Source: Clostridium phage slur17
Sequence record: LN881738.1
Direction: 5' to 3' (one strand)
DNA length: 41,318 nt
In this document: piece after piece, positions 32,370 through 41,318 of the stretch
Numbering within the stretch: position 1 is the stretch's first letter
Layout: each line of letters begins with the position of its first letter
The notes under the pieces: generated by a model
The model's input: only the letters and a program-made list of their open reading frames with translations
The model's database searches: none
Told to the model about the DNA's origin: nothing
Made by a program: the position numbers and the translations under genes

Positions 32370-32585
32370 TATAATATAAAAATATTACTGTAATATTATA
32401 AAAATATTATTTTAGTATTGTATATACAATATTTTAGTATTTTTAATATAATATATTGGTATTGTAAAAGCAATATGTAAATATTGTATTTATATTATTT
32501 GAATATTGTAATTAACAATATTAATATATTGTTGCAATATTATAAAAACAATACTACAATATTATTATAATATTATAAATATAAT
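32370..32585. repeat. Centromere-like cluster of ATATTG/CAATAT palindromes upstream of parA
   Basis: Examples: aatattacTgtaatatt, agtattgtataTacaatatt, aatattgtaattaacaatatt, atattgttgcaatat. Confidence 0.55.
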
Positions 32586-32600
32586 AATGAGGTGGAGAAA

Positions 32601-33410
32601 ATGGCTAATACAAAGCTACTTACGTACTTTAACATAAAAGGAGGTATCTATAAGACAACAACGTCTATAATGACAGCGTATGAACTTGCGAAAGATAAAG
32701 ATAAAAAAATACTCTTATGGGACTTAGATGTGCAAGCAAATCTAACACAATATGTTTATGAAATAAATCATAATGATAATACTACATTAGATATTTTAAA
32801 AGGGATTAGTGCTAATGATGCAATAGTCAAGTCACCTAATGAAAATTACATTAATGTAGACTTAATTCCTTCTGACATACAAATGGCTAGATTTGAACAA
32901 GAGCTATCACCTTTACCAGCCAGAGAAAAATTTTTAGCTCGCTGGTACATGCAAAACTTTAATACTTTGAGTGAGTATGATTATATTATCTGTGATTTAT
33001 CTCCACGCTACGATTTGACAGCTAAAAATGTGCTTTTCTTAGCAGATAGTATAATTATTCCAATTCAAGATAAAAACATTTCTTCTTTAAGAGGAGCAGA
33101 ATTATTTAAACAACTCTGGGATGTTGATAGAACCTATTTTGATAAGGAGGATAATATAAAAAGTACTATTTTAGTTGGATTTGAGAAGAAGAAAACTCAA
33201 ATTAGCGATACTTTCGATTCTTATCTGGAAGGGTTTAACGATATGAGAGATATTATGTTAGATACATACATTAGAAAAAATGAGTTTATAGAGAAGGCAC
33301 TATTAAAAAAACTATCTCTAACAGATTATACAAAAATAACTAAAGAGCATTTCAGCAGACAGGAATTTACTAATATGTTAGAAGAATTGAAAAGAAAAGG
33401 AGTGTTATAG
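32601..33410 (+). CDS. parA: ParA-family partition ATPase (deviant Walker A)
   Basis: KGGIYKTT Walker A, LLWDLDVQANLT, and the CDLSP motif. ATG at 32601 follows GAGGTGG. Confidence 0.85.
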   Translation: MANTKLLTYFNIKGGIYKTTTSIMTAYELAKDKDKKILLWDLDVQANLTQYVYEINHNDNTTLDILKGISANDAIVKSPNENYINVDLIPSDIQMARFEQELSPLPAREKFLARWYMQNFNTLSEYDYIICDLSPRYDLTAKNVLFLADSIIIPIQDKNISSLRGAELFKQLWDVDRTYFDKEDNIKSTILVGFEKKKTQISDTFDSYLEGFNDMRDIMLDTYIRKNEFIEKALLKKLSLTDYTKITKEHFSRQEFTNMLEELKRKGVL

Positions 33411-33743
33411 ATGCCAAGTTTCAACAGAGACCTTTTAGTTGATAAAGAAAAACCGATTTTGAAAAATGGAACAATCGTACAAAATGATTCTACAACTACA
33501 GACAATAAGACATTAAACATATATAATCTAGTTAATAAGAAAAGTAAAAAAGTGACTATGAGTGCAACGCTTGATGAGGAGCTTGTAAACAAATTAAAAT
33601 CTTTTTCTATTGATATGAACAGCGACGTTAGTAAATTATTAAGTGATATACTAACTCAAATTTTATCTGATGTCACTATAAAAGAAGAGAATTTAAATAT
33701 ATACAATGAGAGAAATAGAAGAAATAAGACTAAGAAAAAGTAA
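33411..33743 (+). CDS. Partition adaptor, probable ribbon-helix-helix centromere-binding protein (ParG/ParR-like role)
   Basis: TAGATG junction with parA. KKVTMSATLDEELVNKLKSFSIDMNSDVSKLLSDIL fits a beta-alpha-alpha RHH pattern. Confidence 0.6.
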   Translation: MPSFNRDLLVDKEKPILKNGTIVQNDSTTTDNKTLNIYNLVNKKSKKVTMSATLDEELVNKLKSFSIDMNSDVSKLLSDILTQILSDVTIKEENLNIYNERNRRNKTKKK

Positions 33744-33744
33744 A

Positions 33745-33860
33745 TAATATTATATTTATATTGTTTAGATATTACTTAAATATTGTATATATAATATTTA
33801 AGTAATATTTTAATATTATTATTACAATATATTAATATTGTTTAAATAATATGTTTTAAC
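33745..33860. repeat. Second centromere-like palindrome cluster downstream of the par genes
   Basis: 40-bp palindrome atattacttaaatattgtatatataatatttaagtaatat at about 33770-33809, plus acaatatattaatattgt. Confidence 0.5.
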
Positions 33861-33886
33861 TATAATCTAAAAAGGGGTTGGAAAAG

Positions 33887-34168
33887 ATGAACGTTTATCT
33901 GCAAATTGGAAAAGAGTTATCTGAAAAAATGACTAAATCGGAGTTGAATAAGTTTTCGCAAGAAGTAACGAATTATCTACGATTCGCTGGACATGATAAT
34001 GATATGAAAATTAAACTATTTCAAACAATTATAGAAGCAATTGCTAGAAAAAGAGTAACATTGCCAGCTGACAATGAATTTACACAAGGAATAATGTTAA
34101 GTAACGAATTAGAGATGACAACGAATGTAGGATTTATAATCGAAGGATTAAGTTATCATAATAACTAA
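33887..34168 (+). CDS. Hypothetical protein (93 aa)
   Basis: ATG at 33887 lies 9 nt after AAGGGG; the track TTG at 33878 is less likely. No motif recognised. Confidence 0.55.
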   Translation: MNVYLQIGKELSEKMTKSELNKFSQEVTNYLRFAGHDNDMKIKLFQTIIEAIARKRVTLPADNEFTQGIMLSNELEMTTNVGFIIEGLSYHNN

Positions 34169-34173
34169 ACATT

Positions 34174-34208
34174 AAAAAACAGTGTATTTATTGAATACAC
34201 TGTTTTTA
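34174..34208. terminator. Bidirectional terminator
   Basis: acagtgtatt (34179-34188) pairs with aatacactgt (34194-34203), flanked by A5 and T5. Confidence 0.6.
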
Positions 34209-34364
34209 TTTCCGCATAGTTAATCTAAAATTGGATATTATATTATTTCTATATAAATTAAATTGACATTTAAATCCCTCATAGTTAATCTTAAAATTCT
34301 TATTACAATATTATTTCTAAATAAATTAAAAAATATTTTAAATCCCTCGTAGTTAATCTTAAAA
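34203..34364 (-). CRISPR. CRISPR-like mini-array: three 28-29-nt repeats and two spacers (37 and 39 nt), with no cas genes in the window
   Basis: Repeats at 34336-34364, 34268-34296 and a degenerate one at 34203-34230. The minus-strand repeat TTTTAAGATTAACTATGAGGGATTTAAAT resembles clostridial type I-B repeats. The degenerate repeat lies at the terminator-proximal end. Confidence 0.5.
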
Positions 34365-34400
34365 GCGATACTATATACATTAATAATAATACTCTTCTAC

Positions 34401-34871
34401 TTAATTTTCAATTACATTTTGCAATTCTTGTTTACAACTTTCAATGCCTTTTTGTAATTCTTCTAAAAAAACTGATGTGCTATCGTCTATATTTCTTTCA
34501 GCAATTTCTTCGAAATTTTCTTTATTGAATTTTTTATAACTATCCCAATCCAAATTTTCCCACTCATTTTCACACCAATTTTCAAATTCTTCATAATCGT
34601 TTACGTAACAAATTTCTCCAAGCATATCGTTTAAATGAGTTGGCGCTTGATTTAATGTGAAAATATTAATTTCTTTGTCATCACCTAAAAGTTTAGCCCA
34701 AGTTTGAACTGCTATCGCTTCAACTTTTCCTTGTATATCGATATAAATTTTTATATTATTAGTCTCTTTGATTAAACAACTTTCTTTAAAAGCTTTTATA
34801 GCTTCTTCCTCTATTTTATCTATATTCATATCTATAACTCTTAAAAATCTTCTAGCTTTTTGTTTATTCAT
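34401..34871 (-). CDS. Hypothetical strongly acidic protein (156 aa)
   Basis: The C-terminal half is rich in D/E and W (YVNDYEEFENWCENEWENLDWDSYKKF). It is the last gene of a three-gene operon, immediately upstream of the CRISPR-like repeats. Confidence 0.6.
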   Translation of the reverse strand: MNKQKARRFLRVIDMNIDKIEEEAIKAFKESCLIKETNNIKIYIDIQGKVEAIAVQTWAKLLGDDKEINIFTLNQAPTHLNDMLGEICYVNDYEEFENWCENEWENLDWDSYKKFNKENFEEIAERNIDDSTSVFLEELQKGIESCKQELQNVIEN

Positions 34872-34890: not shown

Positions 34891-35397
34891 TTAGTTGTTT
34901 TTATACATAACAGTTCTTTCGCTCTTTTCAATTTCTGTAAGATACTCTAAAAATTCTTTAATTTCTTGTTTGTTTATGCCTGTAAATTCGTGTCTAATTT
35001 CGCATTTTTCAACGCGTGTAGAATATTTCTCTTCTAATTTATAAAATCCAGGTCTTACACTAGCTATAAGGTCACTTTCTACATTTTTGCTGCATAAGCT
35101 ATTTACATATATTAAAATGTTTTCTATATTTTCTATGTCTACTTTGTCGCCTTTTGAATAATAAAAATTAAATCTCAATCTTATTCCTATGCTACTGTTA
35201 ATTTCACCATGCCCCCACGTTTCAATGTTTAAACTTTTTCCAACTGTTTCTTTAACGATTCCCACGTGACTGTTTGCACAATCTTTAAGACTTATATCAA
35301 ATATATCATTGTTGATTTTATTAATCTCTTTTTCTATCATTTCAACATTCTCTTTATTAACTTTTAAATTTAATATTGTACTAAAATCTATATTCAT
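34891..35397 (-). CDS. Hypothetical protein (168 aa)
   Basis: Clean ORF and the middle gene of the operon. Confidence 0.6.
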   Translation of the reverse strand: MNIDFSTILNLKVNKENVEMIEKEINKINNDIFDISLKDCANSHVGIVKETVGKSLNIETWGHGEINSSIGIRLRFNFYYSKGDKVDIENIENILIYVNSLCSKNVESDLIASVRPGFYKLEEKYSTRVEKCEIRHEFTGINKQEIKEFLEYLTEIEKSERTVMYKNN

Positions 35398-35475
35398 ACT
35401 TCAATCCTCCATTTATTTTATATATTAAAATTATAGCATTCGACGGTGAACTATATTTGTACCAATCCAAAATTT

Positions 35476-36306
35476 TTAACACTCTACACCATCTCTAAAT
35501 ATTTGGTATGCAATTTCTATTTTTCTTTCAGCACTTTCTATTTTTCTATAGTTTTCAATCTGCTTCTTTTTAATGTCTGCAAATCCATTTTTATAAAATT
35601 GTGCATTTTTTTGTATTAATGTTTCTATTATGTATTTTTTAGCTTTCTCTATATATTCTGTGCTAGTAGCTTGTTTTACTGCGTCGTCAAATATTTCAAC
35701 TATTTCAAGTACATTTTCTTTTATTTCATTAGACCAATTATCATTAAAATTTATTTCTTTAGCTATTTTTTTAGCTTCTTCATAGCTTATACTACCTTCA
35801 ACTTTTCTAAGTTTATGAGACGCTTGAGTTTCTCCTTTTAAAAATTTTAAATTTCCAATTTCTTCTGTAAATTGAGACTCTCGAAAAATCTGGTTTATTT
35901 GAAACGCTTTTTGATTTAAAGAATTATATTTTAAAACATTTCTAAAATTATCTATAAAGAACTTAGCATCCTCTATGTTGCTTATTGCTTCTCTTATTCT
36001 TTCAAATTTTCTTTTACATCTTTCTGTCATTTCTTCTATACTCATATCTTTGATTTTGTAGTCTTCATTTTTTATTCTTTCTATTTTACTTTTTTCTAGT
36101 TCGTTAGTTAAATTTAAAATGTCTGTTCTTATATCATTAGCCCAAATAATTTGTTTTTCTGACCCTTTTAATTCTTTCATTTTTATATCCCCCTTTTTAT
36201 TTAAGAAGGATAAGCAAAGACTAAATTGTACTTTATAATCTACATCATTATATTTTTCTTTAATTTCTCTTGCTATTTTATGTGCTTCTTTAAATAAAGT
36301 TTTCAT
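35476..36306 (-). CDS. Hypothetical protein (276 aa)
   Basis: The first gene after the strong promoter. MKTLFKEAHKIAREIKEKYNDVDYKVQFSLCLSFL and GSEKQIIWANDIR look like conserved mobile-element motifs of unknown function. Confidence 0.6.
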   Translation of the reverse strand: MKTLFKEAHKIAREIKEKYNDVDYKVQFSLCLSFLNKKGDIKMKELKGSEKQIIWANDIRTDILNLTNELEKSKIERIKNEDYKIKDMSIEEMTERCKRKFERIREAISNIEDAKFFIDNFRNVLKYNSLNQKAFQINQIFRESQFTEEIGNLKFLKGETQASHKLRKVEGSISYEEAKKIAKEINFNDNWSNEIKENVLEIVEIFDDAVKQATSTEYIEKAKKYIIETLIQKNAQFYKNGFADIKKKQIENYRKIESAERKIEIAYQIFRDGVEC

Positions 36307-36341: not shown

Positions 36342-36370
36342 ATTATAATCTATATGAATATCTAAGTCAA
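36342..36370 (-). promoter_or_regulatory. Consensus promoter TTGACT-17-TATAAT for the three-gene operon
   Basis: The -35 is the reverse complement of 36365-36370 and the -10 is the reverse complement of 36342-36347. Confidence 0.6.
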
Positions 36371-39752: not shown

Positions 39753-41318
39753 TAACTCACCTCTTCTTTTATTTCTTCTATTTGATTACCTTTAAAAGTC
39801 GTTTTTACTTTACTTACTAATACATTATCTATATATTTTTCGTCTACTATAGTCCCATCTGCATTAAATTTAGTTATAGTTTTACTAACCGAGTCTAAAA
39901 TATCTGTTATAGAGCCGTCTGAATTAAAAGTCGTGCTTTTTTTAATGTAATCTAACTCTTTCGGTTTTTCTAATAACTCATTCCATGTAACTTTTCCTTT
40001 TGACGCTTTCCCCGTGTCTTCTCCATTTATAAACCAATTACCGTTTTCGCCGATTGCTGGAGTATAACCTTGTTCCCCTCTAAGCTCTGTATATATATAT
40101 TCCGTTTGTCCTTCTTCTCTAATACCTAGCTGACTTCCATTCCAATTAAATTCTAATTTATTTCCTGTCGCTCCTTTTAGATTTGTATAGCTATAGTCCT
40201 CTTGACCTTCTATTCTAACGCCTAGCTCCGTACCATCCCAACTAAATTCAATGCTATCGCCTTTTTGACCTTTCAAATCTGTATAAGTATAATTCTCCTG
40301 TCCTTCTATCCTTACACCTAGTCGTGTGCCATCCCATGCAAATTCGATATTGTCACCTTTGAGGTCTATATACTTATAATCTAATTCGTATTGTTGCCTA
40401 ACGCCTAACTGTGTGCCATCCCAATTAAATTCTAGGTTCTTGCCGTCCACGCCCGCTAGAGAACCTAAGTCTTCCCATTTAGTTTGATATATATAAATAT
40501 TTCTCCCTATAATCCAGCAATCTCCGATAGTAGGGTCTAATGGTAAGTTATCTATAGAATCTAATTTTCCTAAAATCCTCAAAGATGCCCCTCTAGCTGG
40601 TTTTTGGGTATCTATATTATTAATCCACCAGTTTCCATTTTCTCCTATTGTTGGAGTATAACCCTGCTCCCCTTTCAATTCTGTATAACTATAATTTTCT
40701 TGACCTTCTATCTTTATACCTAATCGTGTGCCATTCCAATTAAATTCAATACTATCACCTTTATCGCCTTTTTGACCTTTTAAATCTGTATAAGTATAAT
40801 TCTCCTGTCCTTCTATCCTTATACCTAGTCGCGTGCCATCCCAATTAAATTCTAAGCCATCTCCATTTTCACCCTTTATTTTTATGTCAGGAACTTTGAC
40901 CCAATTAGTGTTGTCCCAAACATATAAATCAATTTGGTTTTCTATTGTTGCGCTTTTTACAAAGTAAGCATCACTTAAAGTTGGATTGACTGGAAGTGCT
41001 GATATATTATCTAAACTTCCTTTTATTTCTATTCCTACCCCTTTTAACTCTTCTTTTGTGGGGATTGCATTAATAGCGTCTGTAACTTCTGTCTGCATAG
41101 TTTCTTTAGCTGTAGTTACTTCGCTAATCATAGTATTTTTAGCTGTTGTAACTTCCGCTTTAACTGTGTTAACTTCGTCTATTAATGTTGTTTTAGTAGT
41201 ATTAACATCACTAATCATGCTGTTTTTAGCGTCTGTAACTTCTGTAACTTTAGAGTCGAAAGTTTCTTTTATACTATTAAATTCTTCGACCCTTTTACCT
41301 TCTGCGATTTCTAATTCT
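39752..41318 (-). CDS. Tail fibre, 3' part (frame open to the right edge; the track start at 41218 is an internal Met)
   Basis: Upstream of the track Met the frame reads ELEIAEGKRVEEFNSIKETFDSKVTEVTDAKNS. About 7 modules of (L/I)EFNW(D/N)GTxLGxRxEGQxxYxYTxLKG, plus two GYTPxIGENGNW(W/F)IN motifs typical of Gram-positive phage fibres. Confidence 0.75.
   Translation of the reverse strand, partial: ELEIAEGKRVEEFNSIKETFDSKVTEVTDAKNSMISDVNTTKTTLIDEVNTVKAEVTTAKNTMISEVTTAKETMQTEVTDAINAIPTKEELKGVGIEIKGSLDNISALPVNPTLSDAYFVKSATIENQIDLYVWDNTNWVKVPDIKIKGENGDGLEFNWDGTRLGIRIEGQENYTYTDLKGQKGDKGDSIEFNWNGTRLGIKIEGQENYSYTELKGEQGYTPTIGENGNWWINNIDTQKPARGASLRILGKLDSIDNLPLDPTIGDCWIIGRNIYIYQTKWEDLGSLAGVDGKNLEFNWDGTQLGVRQQYELDYKYIDLKGDNIEFAWDGTRLGVRIEGQENYTYTDLKGQKGDSIEFSWDGTELGVRIEGQEDYSYTNLKGATGNKLEFNWNGSQLGIREEGQTEYIYTELRGEQGYTPAIGENGNWFINGEDTGKASKGKVTWNELLEKPKELDYIKKSTTFNSDGSITDILDSVSKTITKFNADGTIVDEKYIDNVLVSKVKTTFKGNQIEEIKEEVS
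41192..41290. repeat. 99-bp perfect direct repeat, copy 2 (partner at 29-127)
   Basis: Identical to 29-127. Exactly 28 nt separate each copy from its window edge. Confidence 0.9.

Follow-up and report, generated by a model that had tools for sequence, protein, structure and literature searches.

Clostridium phage slur17 (sequence record LN881738.1; 41,318 nucleotides, the whole of which is called the window below) carries on its minus strand, at positions 34203–34364, a short CRISPR-like array (CRISPR: short palindromic repeats, clustered and regularly interspaced) of three repeats and two spacers. The gene directly upstream of it is, by its translation, the validated type I-B anti-CRISPR acrIB2. 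The array is probably a viral regulatory array of the "Cracr" type, that is, one whose products resemble CRISPR RNAs (crRNAs), and would serve alongside AcrIB2 by imitating a CreA/CreR-like RNA of the host in more than one of its alleles. Its most likely role is to redirect the CRISPR machinery of the host, not to attack other phages: from the sequences compared, spacer a appears to mimic the guide of allele 1 of a host cassette lying upstream of cas6, and spacer b that of allele 2.

Reading along the minus strand, the array begins with repeat 1 (R1 or psi-R1, TTTTAAGATTAACTACGAGGGATTTAAAA, positions 34364–34336), followed by spacer a (psi-S a, TATTTTTTAATTTATTTAGAAATAATATTGTAATAAGAA, 34335–34297, 39 nt), repeat 2 (R2 or psi-R2, TTTTAAGATTAACTATGAGGGATTTAAAT, 34296–34268), spacer b (psi-S b, GTCAATTTAATTTATATAGAAATAATATAATATCCAA, 34267–34231, 37 nt) and a degenerate terminal repeat, R3 (34230–34203), in which the 5' arm of an intrinsic terminator stands in place of the 3' half. 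This bidirectional terminator (34207–34175, a 14-bp stem with T runs on both strands) overlaps R3 and is the predicted end of the acrIB2/array transcript as well as of the convergent transcript. The repeats are real and beyond chance: Tandem Repeats Finder returned a 68-nt tandem unit with a score of 196, and the 29-mer occurs twice in the window at ≤3 mismatches, compared with no occurrence in 100 shuffles. Coordinates, score and shuffles thus agree with an earlier note, made from the letters alone, that had described three direct repeats with 39- and 37-nt spacers on the minus strand. It had also rightly flagged the near-duplicate spacers as the key oddity; the core common to spacers a and b does contain a single mismatch but measures 23 nt, not 24.

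The acrIB2 gene (34401–34871, minus strand, 471 bp, 156 aa) stops 36 nt upstream of R1, so that its 3' untranslated region contains the array; the intervening 36-nt lead (34365–34400, minus strand) is conserved in 10 phages. The translation of this open reading frame (ORF) matches the published AcrIB2 sequence (PMC10732046 supplement; 471 bp, 156 aa), carries the conserved residues D92/E94/E95 cited there and is 100% identical to phiCD38-2 gp27 (tblastn). The window itself corresponds to Clostridium phage CDSH1 (100% identity) and to phiCD38-2 (99.3%), in none of whose records the repeats are annotated. The CDSH1/phiCD38-2 genome has no cas genes; the array is carried by a mobile element and belongs to no CRISPR-cas locus.

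The evidence for mimicry comes from the partial type I-B cas operon of C. difficile, which was reached via a Cas7 homologue and which is the operon needed for interference and inhibited by AcrIB2 (PMC10732046). Upstream of its cas6 gene lies a degenerate mini-array (L194:7235, L numbers designating loci other than the window) composed of psi-R1 (TTTTTAGATTAACAATATGGGATTTAAAT), a pseudo-spacer psi-S (allele 1, L194:7264, TATTTTTTAATTTATAATGAAATAATATTATATTAGTAG) and psi-R2 (TTTTGGTTAACAATGAGGAGTTTATAAAT). With this psi-S, spacer a agrees in every one of its first 15 nt and again at positions 20–29 (31/39 overall). A second psi-S allele, beginning with GTCAATTTAATTTATAAGG, was found in L198 (after psi-R1 at L198:1809) and independently in L208; L198, from a different C. 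difficile lineage, aligns with L194 along 9.6 kb at 97.1% identity. Spacer b is identical to allele 2 over its first 16 nt (30/37 overall). The correspondence holds in reciprocal best BLAST matches, host allele 1 pairing with window 34364–34271 (78.7%, E = 2e-17) and host allele 2 with window 34296–34203 (80.2%, E = 2e-18), while the next unrelated window match had an E value of 7e-5 or worse. Cracr RNAs are recognized by having at least 9 nt next to the protospacer-adjacent motif (PAM) in common with a CreA/CreR-type guide of the host cas locus; here these common stretches reach 15 and 16 nt. The repeats point the same way. R2 is identical to host psi-R1 at 25 of 29 positions and the phage repeats in general at 25–27 of 29, closer than to the canonical repeat (22/29), and phage repeats and psi-R1 share a derived GGGATTTAAAT end. 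The predicted crRNA 5' handle, AUUUAAA(U/A), is that of the host cas-proximal regulatory mini-array and unlike that of canonical crRNAs (compare ATTTAAAT in the array with the canonical ATGTAAAT).

Each host guide has a candidate target between the mini-array and cas6. For allele 1 this is CCA followed by TATTTATTAATT at L194:7378, the best PAM-adjacent seed match in the locus, and for allele 2 it is CCG followed by GTCAAATTAATT at L198:1987, the longest such match. Both have a 12-nt seed with a sole mismatch at position 6; when type I Cascade binds its target, every sixth base is flipped out and left unpaired. Shuffled spacers reached at least 12 nt anywhere in the locus in 27/2000 cases for L194 and 12/2000 for L198. 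Guide and target co-vary between the alleles at seed positions 1–5 (TATTT versus GTCAA), and pairing is limited to the seed because past position 12 spacer and target are one base out of register. In both alleles the best promoter match is TTGACT, 17–18 nt and TATAAT (11/12 consensus positions), it precedes a 58-aa ORF, and its −35 box falls inside the 37–39-nt protospacer footprint. Spacers a and b thus address what Cracr-type host targets present, namely a PAM, a seed-only match and a promoter near the cas locus.

The host module is a 544-bp presence/absence cassette (L194:7164–7707) with at least two alleles, strongly diverged within flanks that are otherwise 97% identical. Its 58-aa ORF, 23 residues of which are shared by the two alleles, encodes a basic N-terminus and a hydrophobic, transmembrane-like segment. 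The cassette ends in an AT-rich hairpin and T-run just before the cas6 promoter region common to all strains. Because this hairpin appears to insulate the cas6 promoter, the cassette looks more like a CreTA-type unit, with a small protein repressed by Cascade, than like a CreR autoregulator of cas genes. Its architecture (mini-array, PAM and seed at a promoter, basic transmembrane-like 58-aa ORF) would fit CreTA, and we regard it as a candidate CreTA-like guard module.

We then looked at the conservation of the array. Homologues of AcrIB2 were found in 30 phage records, which stand for 21 distinct phages, and in 19 of these 21 the repeat block lies directly downstream of the acrIB2 homologue, the exceptions being ES-S-0107-01 and LIBA6276. 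The layout is constant: stop codon, conserved 36-nt lead, one to four repeats, fusion of the terminal repeat to a terminator, and a convergent conserved gene. The arrays parsed numbered 54 and came from phages in GenBank, from contigs in IMG/VR and from a single chromosomal prophage. Throughout, the spacers keep the order a, b, c. Their 5' parts are invariant (23 nt in 45 copies of a, 16 nt in 38 copies of b, 11 nt in c), whereas at the 3' end both sequence and length differ between copies. The repeat closes with 11 nt, GGGATTTAAA(T/A), which include the 8-nt predicted handle, are invariant in 107/107 phage repeats and recur in the host psi-R1, and the predicted guides begin 8 nt upstream of each spacer (AUUUAAAA/AUUUAAAU). 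Spacers a and b are paralogous to each other and orthologous across unrelated phages. The chromosomal prophage, in strain CD160 (L174), has a single-spacer version downstream of an acrIB2-like gene, with a spacer identical to allele 1 at 33 of 37 positions.

This pattern bears on whether the block could be a decaying relic that no longer has a function, derived either from an array end that was captured or from a tandem duplication. The number of repeats varies from one to four, two AcrIB2-encoding phages have no array, and the RNA fold of the array transcript is not stabler than that of shuffled sequences, the terminator excepted (z = −1.2), the repeat hairpins being marginal (0 to −2 kcal/mol). 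A relic would nevertheless hardly stay about 90% identical at the nucleotide level between the window and phiCD211, beside an acr gene diverged to 50% amino acid identity, nor keep handle nucleotides and seeds strictly invariant while other positions vary. We therefore hold this explanation to be very unlikely, and the idea of a mere 67-bp tandem duplication, which the earlier note had listed, does not fit the invariance of 5' handle and spacer seeds across the 54 arrays.

The same invariance also weighs on a second alternative, a pure RNA decoy like the RNA anti-CRISPRs (Racrs), in which the repeats would soak up Cas6, Cas5 and Cas7 and the content of the spacers would be irrelevant. The array does sit in an acr locus, as do many Racrs (PMC10651486), and most of the host strains sampled lack any target. 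Moreover, phiCD481-1 (L010:2519–2623) and phiCD506 (L011:2519–2624) have downstream of acrIB2 no more than one hybrid repeat, GTTTTTGATTAACTATACGGAAATAAAAG, which runs into the terminator; this solitary unit is probably what remained after the first repeat recombined with the terminal one, and may behave like a Racr. In a decoy, however, nothing would hold the 5' seeds constant while the 3' ends drift, and nothing would call for seeds equal to two host guide alleles that co-vary with PAM-flanked targets. Racrs as defined are, besides, solitary repeat units without spacers, a form seen here in phiCD481-1 and phiCD506 only and not in the window. A decoy pure and simple is thus rather unlikely. 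The repeat decoy suggested earlier retains a plausible part, competition for Cas proteins; what does not stand is the spacers as filler, since each copies a host guide seed, and this part gives way to guide mimicry.

Is the element instead a conventional phage mini-array, with which the host Cas proteins would cleave rival phages or plasmids (superinfection exclusion), as was proposed for phiCD211? Its geometry is that of type I-B arrays, with 29-nt repeats and spacers of 39 and 37 nt (37–40 nt across the phages), the spacers of host arrays measuring 35–40 nt; the homologous block of phiCD211 is annotated as rpt_family=CRISPR in its record; and the phiCD211 array is said to target known C. difficile phages (PMC10732046, citing Garneau 2018). 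The repeats, however, are neither equal nor nearly equal to the canonical C. difficile repeat GTTTTATATTAACTAAGTGGTATGTAAAT. The earlier note had given this repeat correctly, as it is that of bona fide C. difficile arrays, and its estimate of about 21/29 for the likeness agrees with the 21/29 of R1 and 22/29 of R2. Alignment to CRISPR families, a check that it had proposed, gave a sub-threshold match to Rfam CRISPR-DR14 (23.8 bits against a gathering score of 45). Upstream of R1, the conserved C. difficile leader motif with its promoter was not found; the acrIB2 coding region and the 36-nt lead stand there. A conserved leader is common to the genuine arrays of C. difficile, and their terminal repeat is likewise fused to a terminator. 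Because it has no leader but shows the same terminal fusion, the phage array resembles the distal end of a real array.

Nor are the spacers unique acquired sequences with CCW-flanked protospacers. Compared with the window by BLAST they gave only 13-nt AT-rich matches, and a scan for PAM plus seed found only seeds of ≤9 nt. A 271-nt region searched against 50,697 phage records retrieved homologous arrays and 3 spurious records only, and a degenerate core pattern in IMG/VR retrieved 25 homologous arrays together with 37 unrelated AT-rich matches, the latter without PAM or extended match. (In IMG/VR loci, extra repeat copies seemed to lie 1.7–2.9 kb away, but they were artefacts produced by searching loosely with a 22-mer.) A scan of genome contigs with the canonical repeat found C. 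difficile arrays, with no cas operon among the listed matches. Matches in homologous phage arrays are flanked by repeats, not by PAMs, and since these are the only phage matches of the spacers, the reported phiCD211 "targets" are most simply these homologous loci. The search for protospacers in phages, which had been proposed as a check, thus yielded homologous arrays only, and a mini-array directed against rival phage-plasmids finds no counterpart in the phage records or IMG/VR. With their fixed order, invariant 5' parts, lack of a leader and lack of protospacers, the spacers do not look like adaptive acquisitions. Taken together with the orthology of the spacers between unrelated phages, with their paralogy within the array and with a phage that co-encodes an inhibitor of the same interference pathway, these results make a conventional array highly improbable. 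What holds of the original description is an element derived from CRISPR, of type I-B geometry, without cas genes and related to anti-CRISPR biology.

The reading of the array as a multi-allelic guide mimic suggests the following mechanism. The array would be transcribed in the sense orientation with acrIB2, as orientation and terminator indicate; the earlier note had likewise observed that this orientation permits co-transcription with the upstream operon and that a terminator follows the degenerate repeat. A weak promoter of its own is possible: TTGAAA-17-TATTAT at 34411–34383 scores 10/12 against the consensus, at a frequency near background for such matches in AT-rich DNA. Host Cas6 would cleave the repeats and release two guides with the 5' handle AUUUAAA(U/A). 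With 12-nt pairing, Cascade would bind the cassette promoter and repress it with no recruitment of Cas3, and the phage guides would keep this promoter shut whichever allele the host carries. They would also load host Cascade with non-immune RNAs that compete with antiviral crRNAs, which in hosts without the cassette would be the only action of the array. Read-through into the cas genes might be damped too. If the 58-aa ORF is a CreT-like guard toxin, AcrIB2 and Cas sequestration would together disable immunity without tripping it. AcrIB2 is a putative DNA mimic, and the published pull-down points to Cas3 (PMC10732046). Because AcrIB2 appears to engage Cas3, Cascade binding and hence repression should survive its presence. 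When phage JD032, which carries an a+b array (L006), infects its host, eight type I-B cas genes are down-regulated (PMC7205517); this circumstantial observation is compatible with the model and not specific to it.

Several points weigh against this mechanism and against guide mimicry in general. The cassette is absent from most C. difficile loci sampled: among long contigs it was found in 0/26 with the commonest Cas7 variant (P0186), 3/24 with P0187 and 20/24 with P0188. In the commonest, cassette-free configuration, 91 bp of unrelated sequence take its place (L246:1007–1263), and no target was found in cassette-free strains, where the longest seed match was 6 nt. Direct silencing of the cas genes is doubtful, because the cassette hairpin and T-run precede the cas6 promoter region. 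The 58-aa ORF gave no family matches in Pfam, PHROGs, NCBIfam or PADLOC. The phage spacers are full length (37–40 nt), and reported viral guides are shortened. Processing of the array and repression are predictions, and the promoters are consensus matches only. If AcrIB2, being a putative mimic of DNA, kept Cascade from binding DNA, the phage guides would be blocked too. The JD032 data concern the 8-gene operon and were obtained during general host shut-off (PMC7205517); our Cas1 search for this full 8-gene operon gave no recognizable C. difficile match, contig L197 being from another organism. Finally, no target was identified for spacer c, which occurs in four-repeat arrays, and no third host allele corresponding to it was found, either with the psi-R1 pattern in metagenome contigs, which gave alleles 1 and 2 only, or in other Cas7-bearing loci. 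The seed of spacer c, ATCAATTTAATC, equals the allele-2 target save at position 1 (flipped positions 6 and 12 ignored), and the target expected for it is CCN followed by ATCAANTTAAT(C/T). Because this seed is nearly that of the allele-2 target, a host allele not yet sampled is suggested.

A more specific form of the proposal is a "guard-proof" anti-CRISPR RNA. In some C. difficile strains, the cassette guide and the 58-aa membrane toxin would guard the interference operon as a Cascade-repressed unit that had gone unrecognised so far, and stacked mimics, one per allele, would let the phage sequester Cascade and block Cas3 without release of the toxin, spacer c corresponding to the unsampled allele. 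We put this forward tentatively, as possible but doubtful. If true, no bacterial CreTA-like system of type I-B with a toxin that is a protein, and no I-B Cracr array with several alleles, would have preceded it, and the host range of C. difficile phages could be predicted from it.

Several known systems can be compared with the array. Viral crRNA-like Cracr RNAs, some of them linked to acr genes, were tested experimentally by Liu et al. (10.1101/2024.10.29.618823). They are phage-borne and often beside acr genes, with degenerate repeats flanking a pseudo-spacer that contains the PAM-proximal part of a host CreA/CreR guide; they can be stacked in arrays, each spacer addressing another variant of the same CRISPR-Cas type. 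All this resembles the window array, and the acrIF24-Cracr pairing in the same report parallels the one proposed here between AcrIB2 and the array. The multi-spacer arrays described there are of types I-C, I-E and I-F, however, and their spacers are shortened, whereas the window array is of type I-B, has full-length spacers (37–40 nt) and has AcrIB2 as partner; it is also known from its sequence alone, in contrast to the experimentally tested Cracr RNAs. The C. perfringens I-B mini-arrays and those of phages c-st and phiSM101 (Shmakov et al. 2023, 10.1101/2023.03.03.530964) are alike in that a host mini-array lies upstream of cas6, its target lies between mini-array and cas6 beside a type I-B PAM, and the first 15 spacer nt are identical between host and phage. 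They differ in species and sequences; here, two or three stacked spacers would serve distinct host alleles, a validated Acr is linked, and the host counterpart, which includes a small ORF, is a cassette that some strains have and others lack.

On the host side, CreTA, a toxin kept repressed by Cascade through a crRNA-like antitoxin, and CreR, by which degenerate mini-CRISPRs autoregulate cas (10.1101/2023.03.10.532045; 10.1101/2024.01.05.574328), share with the cassette a degenerate mini-array, a seed-only, PAM-flanked promoter site and a small gene near cas. The haloarchaeal CreT is an RNA, whereas the cassette candidate is a small membrane-type protein of putative toxicity, and the cassette, unlike these systems, is apparently insulated from the cas6 promoter by a hairpin. 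Racrs (Camara-Wilpert et al. 2023, PMC10651486) are phage-encoded repeat mimics, often in acr loci, that sequester Cas proteins; they have no spacers, whereas the window has three repeats and two conserved, seed-bearing spacers. The arrays of C. difficile prophages (phiCD630-1/2, phi027; Hargreaves 2014, Boudry 2015) have the same repeat family, geometry and terminal repeat-terminator fusion, but they possess the canonical repeat, a 170–200-nt leader with promoter and diverse phage-targeting spacers, none of which is present in the window array. Viral regulatory mini-arrays, Cracr RNAs and arrays, and Racrs as a related but distinct class are therefore already known. In the portions covered of the main texts and supplements on viral mini-arrays, Cracrs and Racrs, the Cracr tables aside, C. 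difficile, its phages and AcrIB2 are not mentioned. What appears to be new is the C. difficile instance, the linkage to acrIB2, a I-B array with one spacer per host allele, and the polymorphic cassette with its small ORF.

A block annotated or ignored as a "CRISPR array" in phiCD211, phiCD38-2, the phiCDHM phages and JD032 would become the RNA partner of AcrIB2, the only validated C. difficile anti-CRISPR. AcrIB2 was tested as a bare ORF only (PMC10732046), and both the weaker protection in a lysogen and the sensitivity of R20291 to phiCD38-2 despite spacers against this phage are worth revisiting with the array. The comparison also exposes, directly upstream of the host interference operon, a polymorphic cassette of guide, target and small ORF, and provides a natural example of guide-target co-variation across host alleles with a phage stacking a mimic of each. 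In C. difficile, both phage therapy and antimicrobials based on CRISPR-Cas3 depend on the bacterium's own type I-B system, and a phage RNA that reprograms or titrates Cascade, with possibly a host guard that responds, would matter for their design.

A DNA-level function of the block, for example as partition or replication iterons of the phage-plasmid, was also considered. The motif AATATTGTAAT of spacer a matches the repeats of the par region, as the earlier note had pointed out, and parA lies about 1 kb away. The match covers 11–12 AT-rich nt with an E value of about 0.06, it is polymorphic between phages, and since the 3' part of spacer a, where it falls, is variable, it is probably a coincidence. 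The block is also present in the integrase-carrying phiCD418 and in phiCD211, with no parA neighbourhood in either, and in the chromosomal prophage of CD160. The chance that the block serves as such a DNA site is extremely small.

In the window, parA (32592–33410) and a small Arc-like gene (33411–33743) are flanked by AT-rich tandem repeats with periods of 11, 22 and 33 (32371–32588 and 33745–33852), which are likely centromere sites of a phage-plasmid. Near both window ends, at 69–87 and 41232–41250, stands the 9-nt tandem TCTGTAACT (2.1 copies); because it is the same at both, either a self-overlap of the window or a terminally redundant phage genome is suggested. The convergent gene beyond the terminator (33878–34168, plus strand, 96 aa) is a gp28 homologue that accompanies the array and acrIB2 also in phages without par genes. 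Upstream of acrIB2, the acr operon contains two genes (34891–36306, minus strand, 276 and 168 aa), homologues of gp25 and gp26, which in Pfam, PHROGs, NCBIfam and PADLOC matched PHROG families of unknown function only; the earlier description of an operon of unknown proteins thus holds for these two and not for the last gene, acrIB2. The best promoter-like site of this operon, TTGACT-17-TATAAT at 36342–36370 (minus strand), scores 11/12 against the consensus, and a phiCD38-2 lysogen shows high transcription of acrIB2 and of the genes upstream of it (PMC10732046, citing Sekulovic & Fortier 2015).

Beside the phiCD211 array, a 49-aa ORF (L003:2357–2506) is annotated "CRISPR-associated endonuclease Cas3-HD"; among 5.8 billion proteins its sole match is itself, and the annotation looks unfounded. 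Other homologous loci, but not the window, have genes for AP2-domain or "regulatory" proteins just upstream of the acrIB2 homologue, in phiCDHM13 (L004:3735–4370), CD1801 (L005:3307–3951) and JD032 (L006:3309–3944). Proteins combining CapR and AP2 (CasPRs) reportedly silence type I-B cas transcription, according to a 2026 preprint, and by analogy these AP2-domain proteins may be a third anti-CRISPR layer.

Further observations concern the host loci. Directly downstream of cas3 in the partial operon there is a degenerate three-repeat array with two spacers (L194:14406–14566, beginning GTTTAAGATTAACTAAGTGG), whose repeats are unlike both the canonical and the cassette repeats. The cas7 gene of this operon is split in several C. 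difficile genomes (L198:4603–5618, L199:4603–5618, L200:2678–3693 and L201:1563–2578), the same 205-aa Cas7 fragment occurs on 11 contigs, and in L199 cas6, cas8b and cas3 are split as well; because of these split genes, the interference operon is pseudogenised in some lineages. Two genomes of C. difficile cryptic lineages have single-spacer mini-arrays with near-canonical repeats and a normal leader (L104:241–334 and L088:1883–1976), their spacers differing by one mismatch. Other clostridial type I-B operons have their own mini-array upstream of cas6 (L143:7140–7300, with L078; L196:138–330; L244:3430–3560). In two of these three, L143 and L244, a degenerate end repeat closely precedes or is fused to a terminator, and the L196 guide matches 17 of 18 positions of a CCC-flanked site just before a 38-aa ORF.

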